IMG/VR virus record: IMGVR_UViG_3300048930_000283
Direction: 5' to 3' (one strand)
Length of the DNA: 42,873 nt
From: a virus
Taxonomy: Duplodnaviria > Heunggongvirae > Uroviricota > Caudoviricetes
How positions within the stretch are numbered: the first letter of the stretch is position 1; each line of letters opens with the position of its first letter. The position numbers and the translations under genes were made by a program. The notes below the pieces were generated by a model that was given only the letters and a program-made list of their open reading frames with translations, did no database searches and was not told the origin of the DNA. This document shows, in pieces, positions 11,660 through 21,045 of the stretch.

Positions 11660-11926
11660 ATGCAGAGGTTTTTGGTAATAAGGAAACCTCTGCGAACCCC
11701 ATCGAAGGTTACGCCGCTAGGCGCAGTTCTCCGAAATATGCACTATCATTTGCATTTATAGTTTTGTCTTCTTTAACTATCACGACTTTCGACCTTGCCG
11801 ATCCCAATATAGTGATTATGACCCAATCGAAACCATGACCGGCCCATCAAAAGGATACCAAATACCCTTTTGGTGGACCGAAAGGGAGTCGAACCCTTGT
11901 CTTGACCCATTTTCCAATATATTGTT
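11660..11926 (-). ncRNA. ssrA: circularly permuted (two-piece) tmRNA; tag ANDSAYFGELRLAA
   Basis: T-arm+CCA piece (ends 11871) precedes GGGCCGG 5' piece (starts 11845); G3.U70; intervening hairpin; tag frame 11753-11709. Confidence 0.9.
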
Positions 11927-12245
11927 TTACTCAGTTACCTGAGTGAATTTTGTTAAAATCCTACCTTTAGTTAATTTAGTTACCATTGTATTACTTGGGT
12001 ACAGATAATAATTCTCACTGCCATCATTGTACCAATGTCTGCCATATGCAGGATTTTTCTTATCCTTTTTGATATCTCTCCACATTGATATTGGAACCCA
12101 TCCGGATGGAATATTATCTTTGTTAAATGATTTTCTTTCACTGCAATCATTCGCATTCTCAGGAATGCACCAAACACACCCATAATGATTGTTGTTGGTG
12201 CCGGTGGCAAGTTCTGAAAGGCGATTCTTTGTTTCTTCTGAAAAC
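11927..12245 (-). pseudogene. C-terminal (NUMOD-like) fragment of a homing endonuclease
   Basis: SEETKNRLS..NNHYG..W, NPAYGRHWYNDG, KGRI; no catalytic domain. Confidence 0.65.
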
Positions 12246-13179: not shown

Positions 13180-14040
13180 TCACTGAGATTACATGATTTG
13201 CTACAGCCACCTTAGTTCCATTATCCACAGTATTGCGTACCGGGTTCTGAACTTATCCACGGAATCAAATTCCGTCTGACTGCATAACCGCCTTTTTAAC
13301 GTTGTGGCATTTCAACGATCTAGCAACACAACTCTAGTTCTGATCTACTCCCAACCTTGCGGGCTGTTCGGGCTGCTACACCCTAGATGCGACCTCGACT
13401 AAACATCATCAGCCTTGCGAGCCTCAGACGCCAACCTTCATCTTTCGATGGATTGGATTAGGTTATTTTCGTGTTACTATGAGTGCGACTTTGCTTTTTA
13501 GTAAGGTTGGACTTGAACCAACAACGATCTCTTGACATGAGATTGATCTCCTTGATCAACTTATTTGCAACCTACATTTGGAGCGCACTCAACGCTTCGT
13601 AATCTTTTGAATTACGAAATACGCTTCCAAATCTACCTTTCTGCTGCCGCATACTCAGTGAAATTTCTAGACGTCGTCTATGTCATTTCTTACAGACATT
13701 AGCCGAGACCTATTATTTTGAACTAAACCCTTTTCTTGCGGGATCAGAGCTTAATTCTACCCTTTACCTTTATAAGTGATGGATTTGGTACAGCTGTGAG
13801 ATCGGCACCACCCGTCTATGCTTTCGCACTCTCCATACACTGACGTTCCCAGACTAGCTGGCGTCTAAGTGTAAGTTCTTGTCACAGCATCCACTTCCCT
13901 ATTACGACCACCGCATTTGTAAGTGATCGCCCTGTCACCAGGGAGGTTAGGCTTGCATGAATTTCCATTTACATGGCGGGAGTTAAGTAGGATCTGCTCC
14001 CTTTCGCTGACTTGCGCCAGTTTATGTGTCATGCCACTAA
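13180..14040 (-). ncRNA. probable GOLLD large ncRNA (~860 nt)
   Basis: no convincing ORF; many GNRA hairpins (GCAA/GAAA); 3' segments AAAAGGCGG, GTGGATAA and GTAATCTCAG resemble the GOLLD 3' domain as I recall it; tRNA-array context. Confidence 0.7.
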
Positions 14041-14094
14041 TTCTATACTACATTAATACAACTTTAAATACAAATTTACTACTTTACTACTTTA

Positions 14095-14186
14095 TAGACC
14101 TGATGGGATTCGAACCCATGACATAATGTAGTGTCGTTTGACTCCTAGGATAACCACATCTGCTCTGGCCTCTGAGCTACAGGTTT
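14095..14186 (-). ncRNA. tRNA-like RNA with a branched anticodon arm
   Basis: canonical D and T arms; 8-bp anticodon-position stem enclosing 20 nt; no CCA. Confidence 0.65.
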
Positions 14187-14188
14187 AT

Positions 14189-14265
14189 TGGCAACCAGGG
14201 TGGGACTCGCACCCACTTCGGACGGCTTCAAAGACCGTTGCCTCGACTCCTTCGGCATCCTGGCG
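14189..14265 (-). tRNA. tRNA-Gln(TTG)
   Basis: ACGGT-CTTTGAA-GCCGT; CCA. Confidence 0.85.
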
Positions 14266-14274
14266 ATTGTTACT

Positions 14275-14348
14275 TGGAGCAGGTAACGAGAATCGAACTC
14301 GTGCATAAACTTTGGCAAAGTTTTAGGCTACCATTACATCATACCTGC
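14275..14348 (-). tRNA. tRNA-Gly(GCC)
   Basis: AAACT-TTGCCAA-AGTTT; U73; CCA. Confidence 0.9.
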
Positions 14349-14354
14349 ATTCAT

Positions 14355-14430
14355 TGGTACCCATGAGAGGACTCTAACCCCCACCTGATTCTTTAGAAGA
14401 GAATTGCTCTTACAGTTAAGCTACATGGGC
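14355..14430 (-). tRNA. tRNA-Arg(TCT)
   Basis: ATTCT-CTTCTAA-AGAAT; CCA. Confidence 0.9.
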
Positions 14431-14436
14431 ATTGTT

Positions 14437-14591
14437 AGGTCCCACTGGTTGGTGTCGAACCAACATTCCCTAAATGAAGTTTTAACTATCAATCCACATG
14501 CCTTCAGTTAATATAAGGCTGACTCAACTGACAGTGTTACTATCATTCTCTATAGCGTGGTCCGCGGAGACATTCACGCTTTACAGTGAGA
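14437..14591 (-). ncRNA. 155-nt RNA with a tRNA acceptor stem, T arm and a large internal domain
   Basis: TCTCACTG/CAGTGGGA stem; GTTGG-TTCGACA-CCAAC. Confidence 0.6.
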
Positions 14592-14597
14592 TTGTAT

Positions 14598-14688
14598 TGG
14601 AAGCGAGAGCCGGTTCTGCCCACGGCCTATGACCTTTCGGTACCTCTGGGTTATGAGCCCAGTGAGACAACTACTTCTCCATCTCGCT
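14598..14688 (-). tRNA. initiator-like tRNA-Met(CAT) with a long variable arm
   Basis: CTGGG-CTCATAA-CCCAG (three G:C pairs); extra ACC-GAAA-GGT arm; CCA. Confidence 0.75.
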
Positions 14689-14697
14689 ATTATTTCT

Positions 14698-14741
14698 TGG
14701 TCCTCGGCCACGGTAACGATCCGTGCCGTTCCAGCCAATCT
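14698..14741 (-). pseudogene. 3' half of a split tRNA (Ile TAT type)
   Basis: AGATTGGC..CACGG-ATCGTTA-CCGTG-GCCGAGG-A-CCA pairs with the 5' half at 15525-15559. Confidence 0.8.
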
Positions 14742-14744
14742 ATT

Positions 14745-14836
14745 TGGTAGTCCCCCAGGGACTTGAACCCTGACTAACCGCTAATCTGGCGTATCGAGTT
14801 TATAAGGCTCGTCGTGCTACATTACACTAGAGGACT
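14745..14836 (-). tRNA. tRNA-Ile(TAT) with a long variable arm
   Basis: CGAGC-CTTATAA-ACTCG; V arm CGCCAGATTAGCG; CCA. Confidence 0.8.
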
Positions 14837-15489
14837 AATAATTCTATAAATTCTAAATTTATTAAATCATTTGATAATACAACAACTTTAATGTTATTTA
14901 ATTTCATTGCGGAATCTATCTTTTGTTTATCTTTCTTAATCAAGAAATCATTCTTAGGATCAAGAAAAATATTCTGCTTAGGCAAGTAAAAATCAGGAAT
15001 GTAACGCCTTTTCTTTCCATTGTCATCCCAAACATAACCCTGCCTAACACGCTCCCACTCAACATTCAGTTTATCTAGTATTTCAGCAACCCGCACCTCA
15101 TATGAAGATTCTAAAATAACACCTGGTTTATACTCAACATTCTTAGTGTATTTTGAATGTTTTGCCAACCTCTCACATGCGATAATAGAAAGTCTATCTT
15201 TAGTTTCATCAGAATGAACACATCTGGGAAATATATGCCCATTCGCCTCCATTTGTTTCTTTCTCTCATATCCCATTATCCCAAATTTTCTCTGTTGCTC
15301 TGAATTATGGGCCCTGCTTTTATGACCAGAATATCCCTGTGAAGTTTGCAAAATCTTACCGCATAACTCACATTCCCACTTAGTCTTCTTTTCAATAATT
15401 CCCTTGCAACATTTAACATGCCGAACAAAATTAGATGCACTAATTCTTCGCTGACATTTTGAACAATCTTGCTTTTTTATTTGGCTCAT
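14827..15489 (-). CDS. PD-(D/E)xK (EDxHD/TnsA-like) homing endonuclease with zinc fingers
   Basis: ESSYE..RYIPDFYLP..LDPKN; C2H2-like fingers; stop codon inside tRNA-Ile. Confidence 0.8.
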   Translation of the reverse strand: MSQIKKQDCSKCQRRISASNFVRHVKCCKGIIEKKTKWECELCGKILQTSQGYSGHKSRAHNSEQQRKFGIMGYERKKQMEANGHIFPRCVHSDETKDRLSIIACERLAKHSKYTKNVEYKPGVILESSYEVRVAEILDKLNVEWERVRQGYVWDDNGKKRRYIPDFYLPKQNIFLDPKNDFLIKKDKQKIDSAMKLNNIKVVVLSNDLINLEFIELLVL

Positions 15490-15508
15490 TATGCCTCCCT
15501 CATTATAT

Positions 15509-15516
15509 TATTTATA
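15509..15516 (-). promoter_or_regulatory. T4-type late promoter TATAAATA
   Basis: exact motif upstream of the GGAGG RBS; same motif and context at 18270-18277. Confidence 0.65.
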
Positions 15517-15524
15517 TAGGAATC

Positions 15525-15559
15525 ATAAACGCCCTAGCCGCCCACCTGGGCCACCGAGG
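15525..15559 (-). pseudogene. 5' half of a split tRNA, ending at anticodon TAT
   Basis: CCTCGGT..GCCCAGGTGGGC..AGGGCG-TT-TAT. Confidence 0.75.
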
Positions 15560-15641
15560 ATATACGGTCAAGACAATTAAGCCTTACCTTTTACGTTAAA
15601 CACTATGATTAAGATACTTTACTAAAATACACTAATCATAA

Positions 15642-15682
15642 TGGTGGGACTGCAGGATTCGAACCTGCAACGGGACGTTACC
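15642..15682 (-). pseudogene. 3' half of a split tRNA (Thr type)
   Basis: (G)GTAA-CGTCC-CGTT-GCAGG-TTCGAAT-CCTGC-AGTC..ACCA. Confidence 0.7.
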
Positions 15683-16064
15683 TTCGCCTCTTGCCTGAAC
15701 CTTTATTTTTACCTTTAAATGTATCGGTCAAAGAATGACAATTTGAACACAATACTTCTAAATTTATTAGAGAATGGTCGGTACTATCACCGTTTATATG
15801 ATGCAATTCTAAAGGTATTGGTTGGCACATCCATTCTGTCAAATTACATTTCTCACATTTTCTTTGTTTAATACCTTCATCAAATAGTTTGTTTTTTAGT
15901 TTTAAAGATTGAAATGCTGGGTATTTTCCTTCTAAAATATCACTCAATTGTACTTTATTTGGTGGAGATATATTAGTTTTTATACCTTTATTCCATGGTA
16001 TTGAATTTTTCTTTGCTGGCATTTTATTCTCCTTGATTGCACCTATACATCTATTTATGTGCAA
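15678..16064 (-). CDS. HNH homing endonuclease (probable start 16022)
   Basis: PWNKG; CEKC..LELHHINGD..NLEVLCSNCHS. Confidence 0.9.
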   Translation of the reverse strand: MHINRCIGAIKENKMPAKKNSIPWNKGIKTNISPPNKVQLSDILEGKYPAFQSLKLKNKLFDEGIKQRKCEKCNLTEWMCQPIPLELHHINGDSTDHSLINLEVLCSNCHSLTDTFKGKNKGSGKRRR

Positions 16065-16072
16065 TCAAATCT

Positions 16073-16147
16073 TGGTTCCCTGTGAGAATTCCGAGATCTC
16101 GACCTATCGCTTACAAGGCGATTGCTCTGCCACTGAGCTAACAGGGA
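16073..16147 (-). tRNA. tRNA-Thr(TGT)
   Basis: ATCGC-CTTGTAA-GCGAT; CCA. Confidence 0.85.
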
Positions 16148-16159
16148 ATAAATATGTTC

Positions 16160-16179
16160 AACCTTTCAGCCAAGCCAGC
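16160..16179 (-). pseudogene. 5' remnant of a Thr-type tRNA
   Basis: GCTGGCT-TG-GCTG-AAAGGTT. Confidence 0.55.
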
Positions 16180-16187
16180 GTATTCTT

Positions 16188-16261
16188 TGGTCCTTCCTGC
16201 AGGTAATGCTCCTACGTCGCACGATTATCAGTCGTGTGCTCTTCTTTTGAGCTAAGGAAGG
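16188..16261 (-). tRNA. tRNA-Ile(GAT)
   Basis: CACGA-CTGATAA-TCGTG; CCA. Confidence 0.85.
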
Positions 16262-16274
16262 ATTGGTGGTTTTT

Positions 16275-16358
16275 TGGTGGTTCACCACGGTAACGATCCG
16301 TGCGGGCCGAAGCATCTGCTTTACAGGCAGACCATCCTCCTTAGATGTCTAATGAACC
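16275..16358 (-). tRNA. tRNA-Tyr(GTA)
   Basis: TCTGC-CTGTAAA-GCAGA; V arm; CCA. Confidence 0.85.
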
Positions 16359-16504
16359 TCATTCATGCGCTAAATAGTGTGTTCTCCAGGTTTCTCCTAC
16401 TTGTTCTAACAACGAAACAAAACTATGCAACTTATTGGAGTGTGCTAATCTATGACAATTCGGACATAAAATAGTTAAATTATCATGATACTACCCCATG
16501 ATTT

Positions 16505-16578
16505 TGGAGTCTAGTAACAGAATCGCACTGTTCTCTTCGGGTTTGCAATCCGAGGCCCATCTCCTAGACCAACTAGAC
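16505..16578 (-). tRNA. tRNA-Cys(GCA)
   Basis: TCGGA-TTGCAAA-CCCGA; U73; CCA. Confidence 0.85.
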
Positions 16579-16585
16579 AAATTAC

Positions 16586-16673
16586 TGTCGGAAGTGGTAG
16601 GATTTGAACCCACGTGTCCTTTCGGACCATCTGTTTTCAAGACAGCGCCAATAAGCCTCTCTGGCACACTTCC
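16586..16673 (-). tRNA. tRNA-Ser(TGA), 3' end ACA
   Basis: CTGT-CTTGAAA-ACAG; long V arm. Confidence 0.9.
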
Positions 16674-16708
16674 ATAAAACTCTAGCTTACTACCAAGCAA
16701 CCGTATTT

Positions 16709-16790
16709 AGGTGTCGTTGGGTGGGATTTGAACCCACTAACGTCATGACTCGTTATATTCCGTACTGAGAGCGACTCAGCAACAACGACA
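16709..16790 (-). ncRNA. tRNA-like RNA with non-canonical arm order
   Basis: TGTCGTTG/CAACGACA stem; GTGGG-TTCAAAT-CCCAC. Confidence 0.55.
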
Positions 16791-16795
16791 TTGTT

Positions 16796-16872
16796 TGGCG
16801 CCACCAGAGGGAACTCGAACCCTCTCCATTGCTTTGACAGAGCAATATGCAATACCCATACACTATGATGGC
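16796..16872 (-). tRNA. tRNA-Asp(GTC)
   Basis: TTGCT-CTGTCAA-AGCAA; CCA. Confidence 0.85.
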
Positions 16873-17055
16873 AAATTTTTTATATGAAGTCGACAAAAGG
16901 ACTTACGTGTATTGATTCGATCTACTTGGCTTTACCCAGCGTGAGTCTATGTCTCTATCAATGCCTATCCACAATACCCTACTGGTCGATTACAAGGCAC
17001 GCCGTCCGAGCATTATTCTCCATCTACTATTTTGTGGTATCAACCTCATATTTCT

Positions 17056-17138
17056 TGGTACTCTCGGTGGGACTCGAACCCACAATGACAGGATTTTTAA
17101 GACCCTTAGCTGTGCCAATTCGCATTAGTCACGAGAGC
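17056..17138 (-). tRNA. tRNA-Leu(TAA), second copy with extra nt before the D arm
   Basis: AGGGT-CTTAAAA-ATCCT; CCA. Confidence 0.8.
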
Positions 17139-17146
17139 ATTTTGTT

Positions 17147-17223
17147 TGGTGCCCCAGAGGAGACTCGAACTCCTAAAATTTACGTTCTAAGCGTAACACG
17201 TATACCAATTCCGTCACCGGGGC
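17147..17223 (-). tRNA. tRNA-Leu(TAG), short variable arm
   Basis: TTACG-CTTAGAA-CGTAA; CCA. Confidence 0.9.
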
Positions 17224-17229
17224 ATTATT

Positions 17230-17309
17230 TGGCGACACATAAGGGAATCGAACCCTCCTGAACCTCTGCATTGACAGTGCAGCGACCACACCAAGCAGTC
17301 CCATGTGCC
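17230..17309 (-). tRNA. tRNA-Asp(GTC), second copy
   Basis: CTGCA-CTGTCAA-TGCAG; CCA. Confidence 0.85.
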
Positions 17310-17321
17310 ATTATATTATTT

Positions 17322-17396
17322 TGGTCCCACCTGCAGGTAACGCTCCTGCCTCTATGGATTTTCAGTCCATCACTAATCTATCTCAGTTAAAGTGGG
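17322..17396 (-). tRNA. tRNA-Phe(GAA)
   Basis: ATGGA-CTGAAAA-TCCAT; CCA. Confidence 0.85.
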
Positions 17397-17527
17397 TCAA
17401 TACTGTTATAAAACACACCCGAAGTCATATAAATCCTGACAGAAATATACTCGCATGTGTCAGCATACCGACCTAACACCCACTGGGAGGCCGCAACAGA
17501 TGTGGTTTGTAACAGTATTTGGAAAAT

Positions 17528-17560
17528 TGGTCCTCGGTGTCAGACTCGAACTGACATGCT
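17528..17560 (-). pseudogene. 3' half of a split tRNA (probably Val)
   Basis: AGCAT-GTCAG-TTCGAGT-CTGAC-ACCGAGG-A-CCA pairs with the 5' half at 18279-18312. Confidence 0.8.
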
Positions 17561-17564
17561 ATCT

Positions 17565-17637
17565 TGGTGGGTCTTGACGGTTACGCTCCGCCGACTTCCG
17601 CTTGTAAGGAGGATGTTTTACATTAAACTAAAGACCC
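17565..17637 (-). tRNA. tRNA-Val(TAC)
   Basis: TCCTC-CTTACAA-GCGGA; CCA. Confidence 0.85.
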
Positions 17638-18249
17638 AATTATACTCCAAGTTAGTTGGTTTGATGTTAAAACTAGAACCCTAACTGAATTTTGTTCTAC
17701 AACGGCAGATATTTTACGTTGGTCCTTCTTGATTAAGAAGTCATTTTTTGGATCAAGATAAACACCGTAATTTGGCAAGTAAAAGTCGGCAAAGTATTTT
17801 CTCTCTCTGCCATCTAACACATACATTAGATAGGCCGGTCGTATCCAGACAATACCGACTGCATCTAATTCTTGAGCAACTCGAAACTCGTATGAAGACT
17901 CGAGCCAAACTCTGCCTGCGGTAGGAGACTCGTACCACCCATGAGCGTACCTGTTTTTATTCTGACAGCCGAAATTTCTTTCTATAGCAATCTTGCTCAA
18001 CTTCTTTCTAGTCTCTAGTGTAATAGGTATAGATCTTGCTCGGCCTTTAGTTGTTCTCGAAACGCTCTCAGAAATCTTCTTAACCAAATCACTTGTTTCT
18101 TTTGTCAATCCTTTATTCCATGCTAGACAACCTTTTCTATTTCCGCCAGTCGGAACATTGGTTCTCAAAGGATTGTTTCGACATAGCCTTTCATGGTTGC
18201 GGTGAGAATTAGAATTCTTACATTCTTTTTGACAAAACTTACATATCAT
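17623..18249 (-). CDS. PD-(D/E)xK homing endonuclease, paralog of 14827-15489
   Basis: ESSYE..YFADFYLP..LDPKNDFLIKKD; AWNKG; GGAGG RBS; stop codon inside tRNA-Val. Confidence 0.8.
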   Translation of the reverse strand: MICKFCQKECKNSNSHRNHERLCRNNPLRTNVPTGGNRKGCLAWNKGLTKETSDLVKKISESVSRTTKGRARSIPITLETRKKLSKIAIERNFGCQNKNRYAHGWYESPTAGRVWLESSYEFRVAQELDAVGIVWIRPAYLMYVLDGRERKYFADFYLPNYGVYLDPKNDFLIKKDQRKISAVVEQNSVRVLVLTSNQLTWSIIGSLV

Positions 18250-18278
18250 CGTTGTACCCTCCTTTATATTATTTATAA

Positions 18279-18312
18279 AAGGAAGGCGCTTGAACCTCTC
18301 AGCTACCCGAGG
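18279..18312 (-). pseudogene. 5' half of a split tRNA, broken in the anticodon loop
   Basis: CCTCGGG-TA-GCTGAGAGGTTCAAGC-G-CCTTC-CTT followed by TATAAATA. Confidence 0.8.
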
Positions 18313-18493
18313 ATATAAAGTGGAAGAATATGTTCTCATTACGATCTAACTTAGCCGACTCATCTTTCCGATAACCAGGTAGCCTCCCAAGAATGGAGGT
18401 GATCTACGTTTTAGAATAGTAGTCTTTTTTCCTGGCCAGGATAACTGGACGACTATAATGAAAGAGGCTCATAACCACTTCGTTTTACTATTT

Positions 18494-18572
18494 TGGTCTC
18501 AGTGGTAGGATTTGAACCTACGATATCCTGCTCCCAAAGCAGGTGCTATTGACCAGGCTAAGCGACACTGAG
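18494..18572 (-). tRNA. tRNA-Pro(TGG)
   Basis: CCTGC-TTTGGGA-GCAGG; CCA. Confidence 0.9.
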
Positions 18573-18580
18573 TTATTCTG

Positions 18581-18656
18581 TGGTGGACCATGGCGGTACC
18601 GCCCCGCCTCTTCCAAGGTGCAAGCTTGGTGTGCTACCTTCTATCACTAATGGCCC
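18581..18656 (-). tRNA. tRNA-Ala(TGC)
   Basis: CCAAG-CTTGCAC-CTTGG; G3.U70; CCA. Confidence 0.9.
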
Positions 18657-18782
18657 AATTCTGTATTCTTTTTTAGTGTAAATTCGTTGTTTAGGCTTGT
18701 ATGTGGATTTCCCACAGGTTTTACATATTTTCATATCAATTATTTATAACACCCCAAGCAGGCCCATCCCCGTCTAATTTTG

Positions 18783-18968
18783 TATTCACATAAGGCTGTC
18801 GACTGAAACGTGCTTGTTGGATTCGAACCAACGATAGGCCTACATCGGGACCCGTGTTTCCGCTACACCATTGCACTCATTAACCCAAATTTGCGCCAAC
18901 AAAAATGAATGTTAATGCCAATCTAGAGCCACTGCTACATTTGGCGATATAACAGCCTTATGTGAATA
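18783..18968 (-). ncRNA. Y RNA (YrlA)-like RNA: long closing stem plus a tRNA-like domain
   Basis: 17-bp terminal stem; internal D and T arms at 18810-18876. Confidence 0.55.
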
Positions 18969-19170
18969 AATTGTCCCTTCATCATTCTGTCTTCGGAAAT
19001 GAAACTAGAATGGACTCGACGTTTGAATCTACATTCTGACAGACATTAGGACTTTCATTTCATGTTCCTGCCACCTATTATTGGTTCCTTTACCCGACTA
19101 AACGGTCTCACCATACTGTTGCCAGTGGCTATCATAGCGCCCTAGTGGCATGGGGCTCGAGGTATCATAC

Positions 19171-19830
19171 TCATATCGTCATATGAGCTAAGATTCTTCC
19201 TTTTCTATATCCGGTCGGTATTTCATCACTCTTTTTAATTTTCTTATTGAAAATACCGTTAGTTATCCACATAGTACCAAACTGGGAATTACCCACACCA
19301 GTTTGATTTTTAGAATTTTTCCTACTTATTTTTTCCTTAGACAACAAATTGTGCGTTTTTCCTAGAAAAGCAGTTTTACCCGCACTAGAAAACGCCTCGC
19401 TAATTCCATGTCTACTATAAGATATTGTTCCACCCAACGAACCCAATTTGGAATGAAAATTATCACCATATAAGTTTCGAAGTTTCTCATTCGCAAGAAG
19501 TCGTCCCTTACGTGTTCTGGAAATATGCAATTCAGACCCATCATTTAAATAGTCAAACCCACCACTACCGCCTCGTCTTAGATTATAGGTATCATCACGA
19601 GCTAGAAATTCTTCGGTTACGATTTCTGCTTCTCTTGCATACATCGCTTCTTTTGATTCGAAGTACTCTAGGATAGTTTTGGTGAAATTTTCCACACCAT
19701 ATTTCTCGATCGCTGCTAGAATTACTTTTCCAGAGCCCATATAACCATCATTTAAATCTTTGGTTTTATGCACTCCTACGTAAATTTTGCCATTGAGATT
19801 ACATCTCACTTCATATAAGTAATAGAACAT
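19171..19830 (-). CDS. Seg-like GIY-YIG homing endonuclease
   Basis: YYLY..KIYVGVH..YMGSG..YNL; NSQFGTMWITNG. Confidence 0.9.
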   Translation of the reverse strand: MFYYLYEVRCNLNGKIYVGVHKTKDLNDGYMGSGKVILAAIEKYGVENFTKTILEYFESKEAMYAREAEIVTEEFLARDDTYNLRRGGSGGFDYLNDGSELHISRTRKGRLLANEKLRNLYGDNFHSKLGSLGGTISYSRHGISEAFSSAGKTAFLGKTHNLLSKEKISRKNSKNQTGVGNSQFGTMWITNGIFNKKIKKSDEIPTGYRKGRILAHMTI

Positions 19831-19872
19831 TTTGTCCTCCTTACTTATATTTATGCAAAATCTACTTTTGTG

Positions 19873-19950
19873 AGCAGATCGGGAGAGTCGAACTCCTTGC
19901 TTTCGCGTCGGTTTGGAAGACCGATTCCTCTACCCTAAGGAACGACCTGC
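19873..19950 (-). tRNA. tRNA-Gly(TCC) with a small extra arm, CCA not encoded
   Basis: TCGGT-CTTCCAA-ACCGA; GC-GAAA-GC V arm; 3' end T-CACA. Confidence 0.8.
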
Positions 19951-19957
19951 ATATTAC

Positions 19958-20037
19958 TGGGGTGTCTAGTGGGACTCGCACCCACTAAAACTATGATTCA
20001 CAGTCATAGGGCTCGACGACTTTGCTCTTTAGACACC
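19958..20037 (-). tRNA. tRNA-His(GTG)
   Basis: TATGA-CTGTGAA-TCATA; G-1:C73; CCA. Confidence 0.85.
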
Positions 20038-20100
20038 ATTGAATTTGTGGAGGGCTCTCTCCCTCCGCGGACCTTGCTTGAGCATTCAGTATAGGTCTAA

Positions 20101-20130
20101 TCATCTCCTTGCAAGTCATCTCCTTGCAAG
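20101..20130. repeat. 15-bp direct tandem duplication
   Basis: tcatctccttgcaag x2. Confidence 0.9.
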
Positions 20131-20137
20131 TACAATC

Positions 20138-20213
20138 TGGCTCCGGTACCTGGAGTCGAACCAAGATCAAGTGATTAACAGTCACCCCGCACAACCACCG
20201 CGCGTCTACCGGA
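20138..20213 (-). tRNA. tRNA-Asn(GTT)
   Basis: GGTGA-CTGTTAA-TCACT; CCA. Confidence 0.85.
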
Positions 20214-20221
20214 ATTGAATT

Positions 20222-20292
20222 TGGTACCCCAGAGAGGACTCGAACCTCCGTAAGCTTGCTTCGTAGGCATGCCACCATCCTTTGGCTGGGAT
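20222..20292 (-). tRNA. tRNA-Arg(ACG), shortened D region
   Basis: CATGC-CTACGAA-GCAAG; CCA. Confidence 0.75.
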
Positions 20293-20300
20293 ATTAATCT

Positions 20301-20375
20301 TGGTGAACCGTATGGGTTTCGATCCCATCTGCGTAGTTTGAAAGACTACTGACCACACCAGCCGTCCCACGGTTC
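20301..20375 (-). tRNA. tRNA-Glu(TTC)
   Basis: GTAGT-CTTTCAA-ACTAC; CCA. Confidence 0.85.
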
Positions 20376-20380
20376 ATATT

Positions 20381-21045
20381 TGGCCTCAGCTATCTCAGTC
20401 GATAAACGTCCGAGATTGTCTTAATCTGTATCCTGAGGCAATACAGAAGCATCACCAATACTATAAGATGAGATACCACTTGGTGATGTAGTAATCCCAC
20501 CACTACTCTTTAATGATTTCTCCCAGGAAACTAACGCCCCCTGTTCCATCTGCCAATGGCTGTGGTTTTGTGATAATCCCTGGCAGGGGTCGTGTCACTT
20601 ATCCACTCTTCTGAAGAGAAACCATTAAAGAGTGCTCTATTTCTAGAGCAAATCAACATGAATCCTATTAGTATGTCTACCCACAGACTACACCTCGCCG
20701 ACGCATGGCCGATGGGGGAGTGCATACCAGCTGTGTCTATAATAGAATCATATTGACCTAAACGACCCATTTTTCCGCTGACAAATCAGCTTCCATCCTT
20801 GTCGCCGCCCATTCGGTTTTATTTACAAGGTTCCGCAGTCTCGTTCCGCATTTCCTTGACTCACTGTTGCCTGGCATCAGCTTACTTCATCGATTGTCTT
20901 TCGACTCGATTGCCCTCTTTAGGTCACTAACAACCCGGAGTACCGATTGTTAGAAGAGGTCTTCTTGGCGGGCTCTTGACCCCACTTAGCCCTTAATTAC
21001 TTCGCATCATTTACCTGTTACTCACCTTCAAATCAATCAACATGA
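20381..21045 (-). ncRNA. structured non-coding leader of the tRNA array (several modules)
   Basis: no convincing ORF; closed stems at 20505-20633 and 20651-20758 and many hairpins. Confidence 0.55.

Follow-up and report, generated by a model that had tools for sequence, protein, structure and literature searches.

Homing endonucleases are, to our knowledge, thought to enter essential genes only behind an intron or intein, or else to occupy harmless positions between genes. In bacterial tRNAs, group I introns bearing homing-endonuclease open reading frames (ORFs) occur in the anticodon loops, I-Ssp6803I being reportedly encoded in an intron of the tRNA-fMet anticodon loop, and integrative elements that target tRNA genes (attP-type) carry a duplicate of the tRNA end that they displace. 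In phage T4, the free-standing endonuclease SegB cuts tRNA genes at a T-loop motif and drives the inheritance of neighbouring tRNA genes (PMC2330249), and it can amplify a tRNA segment (PMC13096335). In fungal mitochondria, mobile endonuclease ORFs bring a foreign replacement for the displaced end of a gene, as in atp6 of Allomyces macrogynus and in atp6, atp9, cox2, and nad3 of Glomus (PMC3630166 and its reference 48). Here, we describe a cassette in a 42,873-nucleotide (nt) stretch of DNA from a phage of the Caudoviricetes (IMG/VR record IMGVR_UViG_3300048930_000283), hereafter the window. The cassette lies in the anticodon loop of a broken tRNA-Val(TAC) gene and contains a gene for a putative nuclease and an intact tRNA-Val(TAC) of different sequence. 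It is likely a free-standing homing endonuclease element that brings a replacement tRNA.

The cassette resembles the SegB enzymes of T4 and T6 and the F-Tfl enzymes of T5 (PMC2330249; PMC13096335) in that an intronless nuclease gene lies within a phage tRNA array. Those enzymes cut tRNA genes of relatives lacking the nuclease and are co-inherited with neighbouring tRNAs through donor repair, as we propose for the window enzyme, and maturation of the tRNAs within the transcript is likewise believed to dampen their expression. The enzymes themselves differ: SegB is of GIY-YIG type, those of T5 are of HNH type, and that of the window is assigned to the PD-(D/E)XK type. In addition, SegB recognises a conserved T-loop motif and sits between genes, whereas the window cassette lies in the anticodon loop of one specific tRNA, kills this gene, and carries a same-identity replacement fused to the nuclease stop codon.

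With the fungal mitochondrial ORFs (PMC3630166), the cassette shares an endonuclease ORF in an essential gene, a divergent copy that is brought along, a native part left as an unexpressed remnant, and an intact gene in close relatives. The fungal ORFs affect protein-coding genes, in which they substitute the 3′ end alone and keep the frame; they encode LAGLIDADG or GIY-YIG enzymes and reside in mitochondria. In contrast, the window cassette supplies a whole RNA gene, leaves both old ends in place, and has a phage host. The features that define the fungal replacement ORFs are present in the window layout, a likeness of design, not homology. T7 endonuclease I (1M0D), I-Bth0305I (3R3P), and I-Ssp6803I have the PD-(D/E)XK fold and the catalytic E...D...(D/E)xK constellation in common with the window enzyme, but T7 endonuclease I has no zinc-finger/NUMOD3-like N-terminal region, and the window cassette has no intron. 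The attP-type elements also target a tRNA gene and preserve its function by element-borne sequence. However, they are large, depend on integrases, and restore the gene with an identical 3′ segment, whereas the window cassette has no integrase, replaces the whole tRNA, and would spread via break repair. No paper describing this design was found in literature searches, the coverage of which was incomplete and gives no proof of absence. Both component ideas are known, but their combination appears to be new: the enzyme is of PD-(D/E)XK type, the anticodon loop is the insertion site, and the replacement is an entire tRNA joined to the stop codon.

The interrupted tRNA-Val gene and its empty site

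The window is phage DNA that encodes a ribonucleotide reductase, a primase, a tail-fibre assembly gene, and several homing-endonuclease-like genes. About 30 tRNA genes form a minus-strand array at about 7.3-20.4 kb, within which lie a permuted tmRNA (transfer-messenger RNA), a GOLLD RNA, and the cassette (Table 1). The first-pass annotation of this DNA had described a tRNA 5′ half broken in the anticodon loop, a paralogous nuclease, an intact tRNA-Val(TAC), and an orphan 3′ half, and all four parts were located exactly to the base. We refer to the broken resident tRNA as type B and to the intact tRNA in the cassette (the cargo) as type A. A sister cassette with the same order of parts interrupts a tRNA-Ile(TAT) gene of the array and provides context and a control.

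Parts of 17000-19000 were contained in 20 public sequencing runs from nine studies (mainly sludge and bioreactor metagenomes, and one soil study), and contigs of four of these runs (X1, X4, X5, and X13) were compared with the window over 14000-20500. The X1 contig (record 1; sludge metagenome, 15,537 nt) matched 17288-17560 with 0 differences and then continued with 18279-20500. In place of the cassette, X1 has nine letters, ACAAGTAGG on the minus strand (CCTACTTGT on the plus strand), which correspond to tRNA positions 35-43. Together with these nine letters, the window halves form a 76-nt gene that is called tRNA-Val(tac) by ARAGORN and has the anticodon loop CTTACAA. The nine target nucleotides are absent from the window, where the halves do not abut, and the short allele therefore cannot be a deletion derivative. 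Judged by its sequence, the short allele of X1 is the ancestral, uninterrupted tRNA-Val gene, present in a near-identical phage. The locus thus shows the presence/absence polymorphism, with an intact target at the empty site, that characterizes free-standing homing endonucleases.

The empty site also bears out the identity of the split tRNA, which the first-pass annotation had taken to be Val: the anticodon of the joined halves is TAC in X1. Moreover, the D arm TAGCTGAGAGGTTCAAGCG is common to 14 IMG/VR tRNA genes, all of which are Val (12 TAC and 2 CAC), and one of them (L082) is identical to the orphan 5′ half over its first 26 nt. The identity of the halves was finally set by the empty site together with this search for the D-arm pattern. 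Assignment through the best local match in a tRNA library was dropped as unreliable, a Lys-ttt gene having scored best for the 5′ half.

At the Ile cassette, the X1 contig has 30 nt instead of 797 nt, and ARAGORN identifies the gene rebuilt there as tRNA-Ile(tat) of 95 nt. In X4, X5, and X13, the Ile cassette is present with 0 differences, and 160 other letters replace 17397-18286. The two cassettes hence vary independently among very close relatives. The 5′ half beside the insert in the Ile cassette differs from the empty-site allele over ~20 nt, a hint of co-conversion of the flank. Outside the metagenome runs, no close DNA-level relative of the window was found among the INPHARED phages, where a blastn search ("distant" settings) with 17300-18600 gave tRNA-Pro matches only and no relative of the cassette, and the exact flank pattern (26 nt 3′ of the orphan 3′ part) had no match in IMG/VR.

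Table 1. Features of the tRNA array in the window
Feature	Positions	Strand	Remarks
Orphan 5′ half, resident tRNA-Val(TAC) type B, nt 1-34	18312-18279	minus	CCTCGGG TA GCTGAGAGGTTCAAGC G CCTTC CTT; acceptor strand, D arm, 5′ anticodon stem, C32-T33-T34
Inserted cassette, 718 bp	18278-17561	minus	Between the type B halves; 9 nt there in the uninterrupted allele
TATAAATAATATAA, motif of TATAAATA type	18277-18264	minus	T4 late-promoter-like; possible promoter
Shine-Dalgarno AGGAGG	18263-18258	minus	Directly after TATAAATAATATAA
Nuclease ORF, 208 amino acids	18249-17623	minus	Putative homing endonuclease gene; ATG at 18249, TAA stop
Cargo tRNA-Val(TAC) type A, intact	17637-17565	minus	Rfam match and cloverleaf fold; followed by four bases to the cassette end
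Orphan 3′ part, type B tRNA-Val, nt 44-76	17560-17528	minus	AGCAT GTCAG TTCGAGT CTGAC ACCGAGG A CCA; variable loop, T arm, acceptor strand ACCGAGG, A73, CCA
Sister cassette in long-variable-arm tRNA-Ile(TAT)	15559-14693	minus	Same part order; context and control
Ile cassette nuclease, 220 amino acids	15489-14827	minus	Paralogue of the 208-residue ORF
Ile cassette cargo tRNA-Ile(TAT)	14836-14745	minus	5′ part, 14-mer, and nuclease before; 3′ orphan after
HNH endonuclease gene	15678-16064	minus	Beside intact tRNA-Thr(TGT), 16147-16076
GIY-YIG homing endonuclease gene	19171-19830	minus	PHROG 314, E 2e-41; between tRNA genes
GOLLD RNA	13180-13634	minus	184.5 bits; inside tRNA array
Permuted tmRNA	11709-11934	minus	85.3 bits; inside tRNA array

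The 14-nt sequence TATAAATAATATAA at the start of the cassette is identical to 15516-15503 of the Ile cassette. The first-pass annotation had recognised this identity, but its reading as a junction motif did not hold: the sequence is not a junction scar but rather the conserved (T)ATAAATA element of the cassette, which many of the listed family members have ~10-25 nt 5′ of their start codon. As part of the cassette that resembles a T4-type late promoter, it may function as a promoter. The putative start codon is the ATG at 18249, backed by the ribosome-binding site and by the M..C..C start common to the homologues. A longer frame of 238 residues was rejected, as it merely runs through the tRNA half. 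A hairpin (CCTTCCTTT / AAAGGAGGG) that would mask the ribosome-binding site is present in the Val cassette and not conserved in the Ile cassette, and we make no claim for it.

The cargo tRNA overlaps the nuclease ORF by 15 nt (17637-17623), which comprise the last codons of the ORF and its TAA stop, so that the stop codon lies inside the D loop. The cargo matched the full-length Rfam model RF00005 with 48.6 bits compared to a gathering score of 29 (E 7.5e-10 in a 201-nt search). At minimum energy, it folds as a cloverleaf and has an anticodon loop of 7 nt, a discriminator base, and CCA. The D loop has no GG, and the T loop is AGCGTAA, with A54/T58 replacing T54/A58; the canonical T54-Psi55-C56 and G18-G19 are absent. 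Compared with the type B target, type A has a different sequence on both sides of the anticodon stem, in the variable loop, and in the T arm. The acceptor pair 7-66 of the type B halves is a G.A mismatch.

T loops reading AGCGTAA, AGCGTTA, or ATCGTTA instead of TTCGAAT were observed at 17565-17637 and 14693-14730 of the window and in the relatives L095 and L099. The A54/T58 of these loops resembles a swapped T54/A58 pair, and the same tRNAs have GG-less D loops. Because this pattern recurs in several phages, the unusual loops are a lineage trait rather than decay.

The putative nuclease and its tRNA-linked family

A profile of 34 homologues of the 208-residue protein matched T7 endonuclease I (1M0D) in the PDB with an E value of 6.7e-5. 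In this match, E121, D155, D166, and K168 of the protein align with the catalytic E20, D55, E65, and K67 of T7 endonuclease I. E121 and K168 do not vary among the 34 homologues, and conservation of D155 and D166 is at least 90%; the catalytic motif is therefore intact. The AlphaFold (AF2) model of the protein has a mean pLDDT (predicted local distance difference test) of 89.3. When residues 94-208 were compared by VIA-align, PD-(D/E)XK nucleases only were matched (TnsA, Z 8.7; Bax1, 7.8; I-Bth0305I, 7.3; Vsr, 7.1). Foldseek gave no match in the PDB at E ≤ 0.001, and the fold was assigned from VIA-align and the sequence profile, both of which point to a restriction-endonuclease-like fold with the catalytic set E-D-(D/E)xK. 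Matches in PHROGs were to unnamed families and to "endonuclease / Holliday junction resolvase". The N-terminal 90 residues are modelled with high confidence as a zinc-finger-like hairpin-helix (CxxC...H...C) and two helices, which by our reading of the motif may be NUMOD3-like. The ORF is thus predicted to encode a nuclease with intact active-site residues and DNA-binding modules.

The search of IMG/VR gave 131 relatives, of which 80 loci were fetched and 66 distinct ORFs analysed, and 127 further relatives were found in the protein database at E ≤ 0.001. A tRNA gene lies within 400 nt of 59 of the 66 ORFs. At 31 of the 66, a tRNA on the same strand starts between -40 and +10 nt from the stop codon, mostly at -9 or -14, and the stop codon corresponds to tRNA nt 8-10 (TAG, at -9) or is a TAA or TGA in the D loop (at -14). 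With the stop inside the cargo tRNA, processing by RNase P would remove the stop codon of the nuclease mRNA. In a sub-branch with a longer N-terminus, an antisense tRNA abuts or overlaps the stop codon in 7 members.

In many loci, an orphan 5′ half that stops at about nt 34-38 lies upstream of the ORF and precedes the (T)ATAAATA motif. The residual anticodon letters match the cargo, with CTGAT at loci carrying Ile-GAT (L003, L026, and L060) and TTTG or CTTG at loci carrying Thr-TGT (L019, L037, L053, and L070). In L039, L050, L060, L095, and L099, as at both sites in the window, the cassette lies between complementary 5′ and 3′ orphans, and the 3′ half is entirely absent from L001, the closest relative in IMG/VR.

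The first-pass annotation had proposed that nuclease phylogeny be set against cargo identity, and the two are linked. In a maximum-likelihood tree of the 66 proteins, clades follow the identity of the cargo, with support by the Shimodaira-Hasegawa-like approximate likelihood ratio test (SH-aLRT) of 96 for Val, 97 for Gly, 99 for Ile-GAT, and 100 and 97 for two Ile-TAT clades. Cargo identity changes 7 times on the tree, the minimum for 8 states, whereas 1000 shuffles of the labels gave 12 changes at the least and 17.4 on average, a statistic that overstates independence because related sequences share labels. The tree result is a linkage of nuclease lineage to cargo, not independent co-evolution.

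The same annotation had suggested that the elements are retargeted through their N-terminal regions, a proposal that gains indirect support only. The 22 closest relatives listed share 49-59% identity with the Val enzyme of the window in the C-terminal domain and 14-43% in the N-terminal 100 residues, the top value (43%) being that of L001, the only other Val-linked enzyme among these 22. The 208- and 220-residue nucleases of the window are 37% identical, with conserved C-terminal halves (ESSYE, DFYLP, LDPKNDFLIKKD) and divergent N-terminal halves.

Reciprocal tRNA-Val alleles and a proposed origin of the cassette

The five closest enzymes (50-55% identical to that of the window) all have tRNA-Val(TAC) as cargo. 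In four of them (L001, L095/96, L098, and L099/100), the cargo is like the broken type B of the window, with agreement at 52-57 of 68-74 aligned positions, and the cargo of L101 is a third sequence type of tRNA-Val(TAC). Conversely, the orphan 5′ half is like the type A cargo of the window in at least four relatives (L001, L095, L098, and L101), with 30 of 32 positions the same in L098, and the orphan 5′ half of L099 appears type A-like by eye. L095 and L099 retain a 3′ orphan as well, also of type A, in which the unusual T arm recurs as GGCGG AGCGTTA CCGTC (25 of 28 positions in L099). Since type A is broken in these relatives and is cargo in the window, it is a real and widespread phage tRNA-Val. 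One possible reading, which we put forward tentatively, is that the two tRNA-Val(TAC) types and the two sister nuclease lineages form a reciprocal drive, in which each enzyme would cut the allele that the other carries as its immune cargo.

For the cassette itself, we propose the following route. In a mixed infection with a phage that lacks the cassette, the nuclease would cut the type B tRNA-Val(TAC) gene of that phage, either within the anticodon loop or beside it. Repair of the break from the cassette-bearing genome would then install the putative promoter, the nuclease gene, and the replacement tRNA. The old gene of the recipient would become a dead 5′ half and a dead 3′ part flanking the cassette, and the cargo would supply tRNA-Val(UAC). 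The cargo would escape cutting because its sequence differs from that of the target in the anticodon-stem strands, the variable loop, and the T arm. If the two tRNAs, of donor and recipient, had diverged too far for recombination on the 3′ side, the former 3′ part would stay behind, as in the window; if they could recombine there, only the 5′ half would remain, as in L001.

Several observations weigh against this proposal. Cleavage of DNA by the 208-residue protein, and of the type B gene in particular, is a prediction from sequence. The best-matching T7 endonuclease I is a junction resolvase, not a homing enzyme. No Pfam model reaches its threshold, Phage_endo_I (PF05367) scoring 16.2 bits with a gathering cut-off of 29.1, so that the protein is a superfamily relative and not a member of that Pfam family. 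The cargo was not called by ARAGORN, presumably because of its AGCGTAA T loop and GG-less D loop, and with these odd loops its function is putative. The motif TATAAATA has 5 matches in the window compared to 3.35 expected and is thus not enriched. The right-hand junction is ambiguous by up to ~7 nt because the cassette end CAAGAT resembles the target CAAGTA. Only one occupied copy of the Val cassette was seen: a second did not appear in the four runs, none of which covers 17689-18122, a gap in coverage rather than a sign of absence. In exact look-ups, neither the 208-residue nor the 238-residue protein was on record. The shared labels behind the tree statistic count on the same side.

The resemblance of the catalytic domain to a resolvase also bears on a different account, in which the cassette is real and moves, the PD-(D/E)XK protein merely travels along or serves in recombination or repair, for instance as a junction resolvase, and the insertion was driven by the HNH or GIY-YIG endonuclease of the array (Table 1) or by illegitimate recombination between tRNA genes. 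Enzymes of the SegB type cut many tRNA genes and promote rearrangement of tRNA arrays, several further indels separate close relatives in this array, and T7 endonuclease I is indeed the closest in sequence to the catalytic domain. Nevertheless, we consider this account unlikely. The borders coincide with the ORF and its cargo in two independent cassettes of the window and at dozens of loci of unrelated phages, many of them without a GIY-YIG or HNH neighbour. In addition, nuclease clades follow cargo identity, the zinc-finger and NUMOD3-like modules are typical of homing enzymes, and one genome carries two paralogues, each within a different tRNA.

Far less probable is that the halves are leftovers of ordinary tRNA duplication and decay that flank the cassette by coincidence, or that the short allele of X1 is a secondary deletion. 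Pseudogenes do build up in tRNA arrays, and the mismatched acceptor pair 7-66 would fit decay. However, the nine nucleotides of X1 complete a canonical anticodon arm, and a deletion cannot create what the window does not contain; furthermore, the same nested layout with matching identities recurs in many unrelated contigs. As far as the sequences allow judgement, chance decay is excluded by the empty site. We assign the lowest probability of all to a very long group I or other excised intron that contains the ORF and the nested tRNA and leaves the outer tRNA-Val still made. Its appeal lies in the position of the insertion at the anticodon loop, where introns of this kind with homing-endonuclease ORFs are known in bacterial tRNAs. 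Yet no Rfam intron or ribozyme was matched at E ≤ 10 in 14000-20500, ARAGORN found no outer tRNA when introns of up to 1200 nt were permitted, and L001 lacks a 3′ half entirely. The whole 3′ strand of the anticodon stem is among the nine target nucleotides missing from the window, and no excision could therefore restore the cloverleaf. With the missing strand and no ribozyme match, a self-splicing intron appears excluded. The homing element with a replacement tRNA remains the reading that we prefer.

Further elements of the array and implications

Other parts of the array vary in similar ways. In all four runs compared, the stretch 15676-16156, with the HNH gene and tRNA-Thr, is replaced by 29 nt with the anticodon loop TTTGTAA, and an orphan T arm and acceptor strand lie 3′ of the HNH stop codon. 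By its sequence, this stretch looks like a third cassette of this design, in which the nuclease is unrelated and the cargo precedes it; with the boundaries chosen, ARAGORN did not call a tRNA at the Thr empty site as rebuilt. The contigs of X4 and X13 skip 19196-19871, which makes the GIY-YIG gene a further presence/absence element. The X1 contig has ~715 extra nt where the window has 60 nt (17228-17287) inside tRNA-Asp(GTC) (17230-17309), and 361 extra nt at 16488/16489; X1 may carry cassettes at these sites, which are intact in the window.

An ORF of 53 residues at 18573-18760 (minus strand) begins with MKICKTCGK (zinc-finger-like) and ends at the first base of tRNA-Pro(TGG). It is preceded by TATAAATAAT and, on its 5′ side, by CTGCTTGGGGTG, a sequence similar to the anticodon loop of a Pro tRNA. 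The contigs of X4, X5, and X13 have 164 other letters in place of 18501-18749. The region 18573-18760 may be a decayed cassette of the same family. A tRNA-like gene of 92 nt at 14095-14186 (minus strand) scored 45.6 bits in Rfam, has no CCA end, and was called Val(tac) by ARAGORN only when a 17-nt insert in the anticodon loop was allowed; the region has many differences in the X1 relative. Finally, tRNA-Ile(TAT) of 91-95 nt with a long variable arm was observed in the window (14745-14836) and in L019, L043, L045, L051, L057, L059, and L065, with the motif CCAGATTAG conserved in the loop of the long arm in most of the listed phages and altered in L043. The broken resident Ile gene of the window also belongs to this kind, and we know of no comparable long-arm tRNA-Ile.

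The points of most value are the empty-site allele and the reciprocal Val arrangement. The cassette would offer homing endonucleases a third route into essential genes, by which a gene is broken and a cut-resistant substitute is delivered in one package, and both the occupied and the empty alleles are natural. Such a route would account for orphan half tRNAs and a "tRNA within tRNA" in phage arrays and large phage genomes, for the fast turnover of tRNA sets, and for the persistence of odd-looking tRNAs. A constant catalytic domain combined with a variable DNA-binding region that tracks tRNA identity provides a natural series for studying changes of specificity, and the reciprocal Val arrangement provides a directly testable pair of enzyme and target. 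If the reciprocal drive is real, phage populations would flip between tRNA alleles, with specificity switched via the variable zinc-finger/NUMOD3 region. If it holds more generally, the family as a whole would have colonised essential RNA genes without introns.

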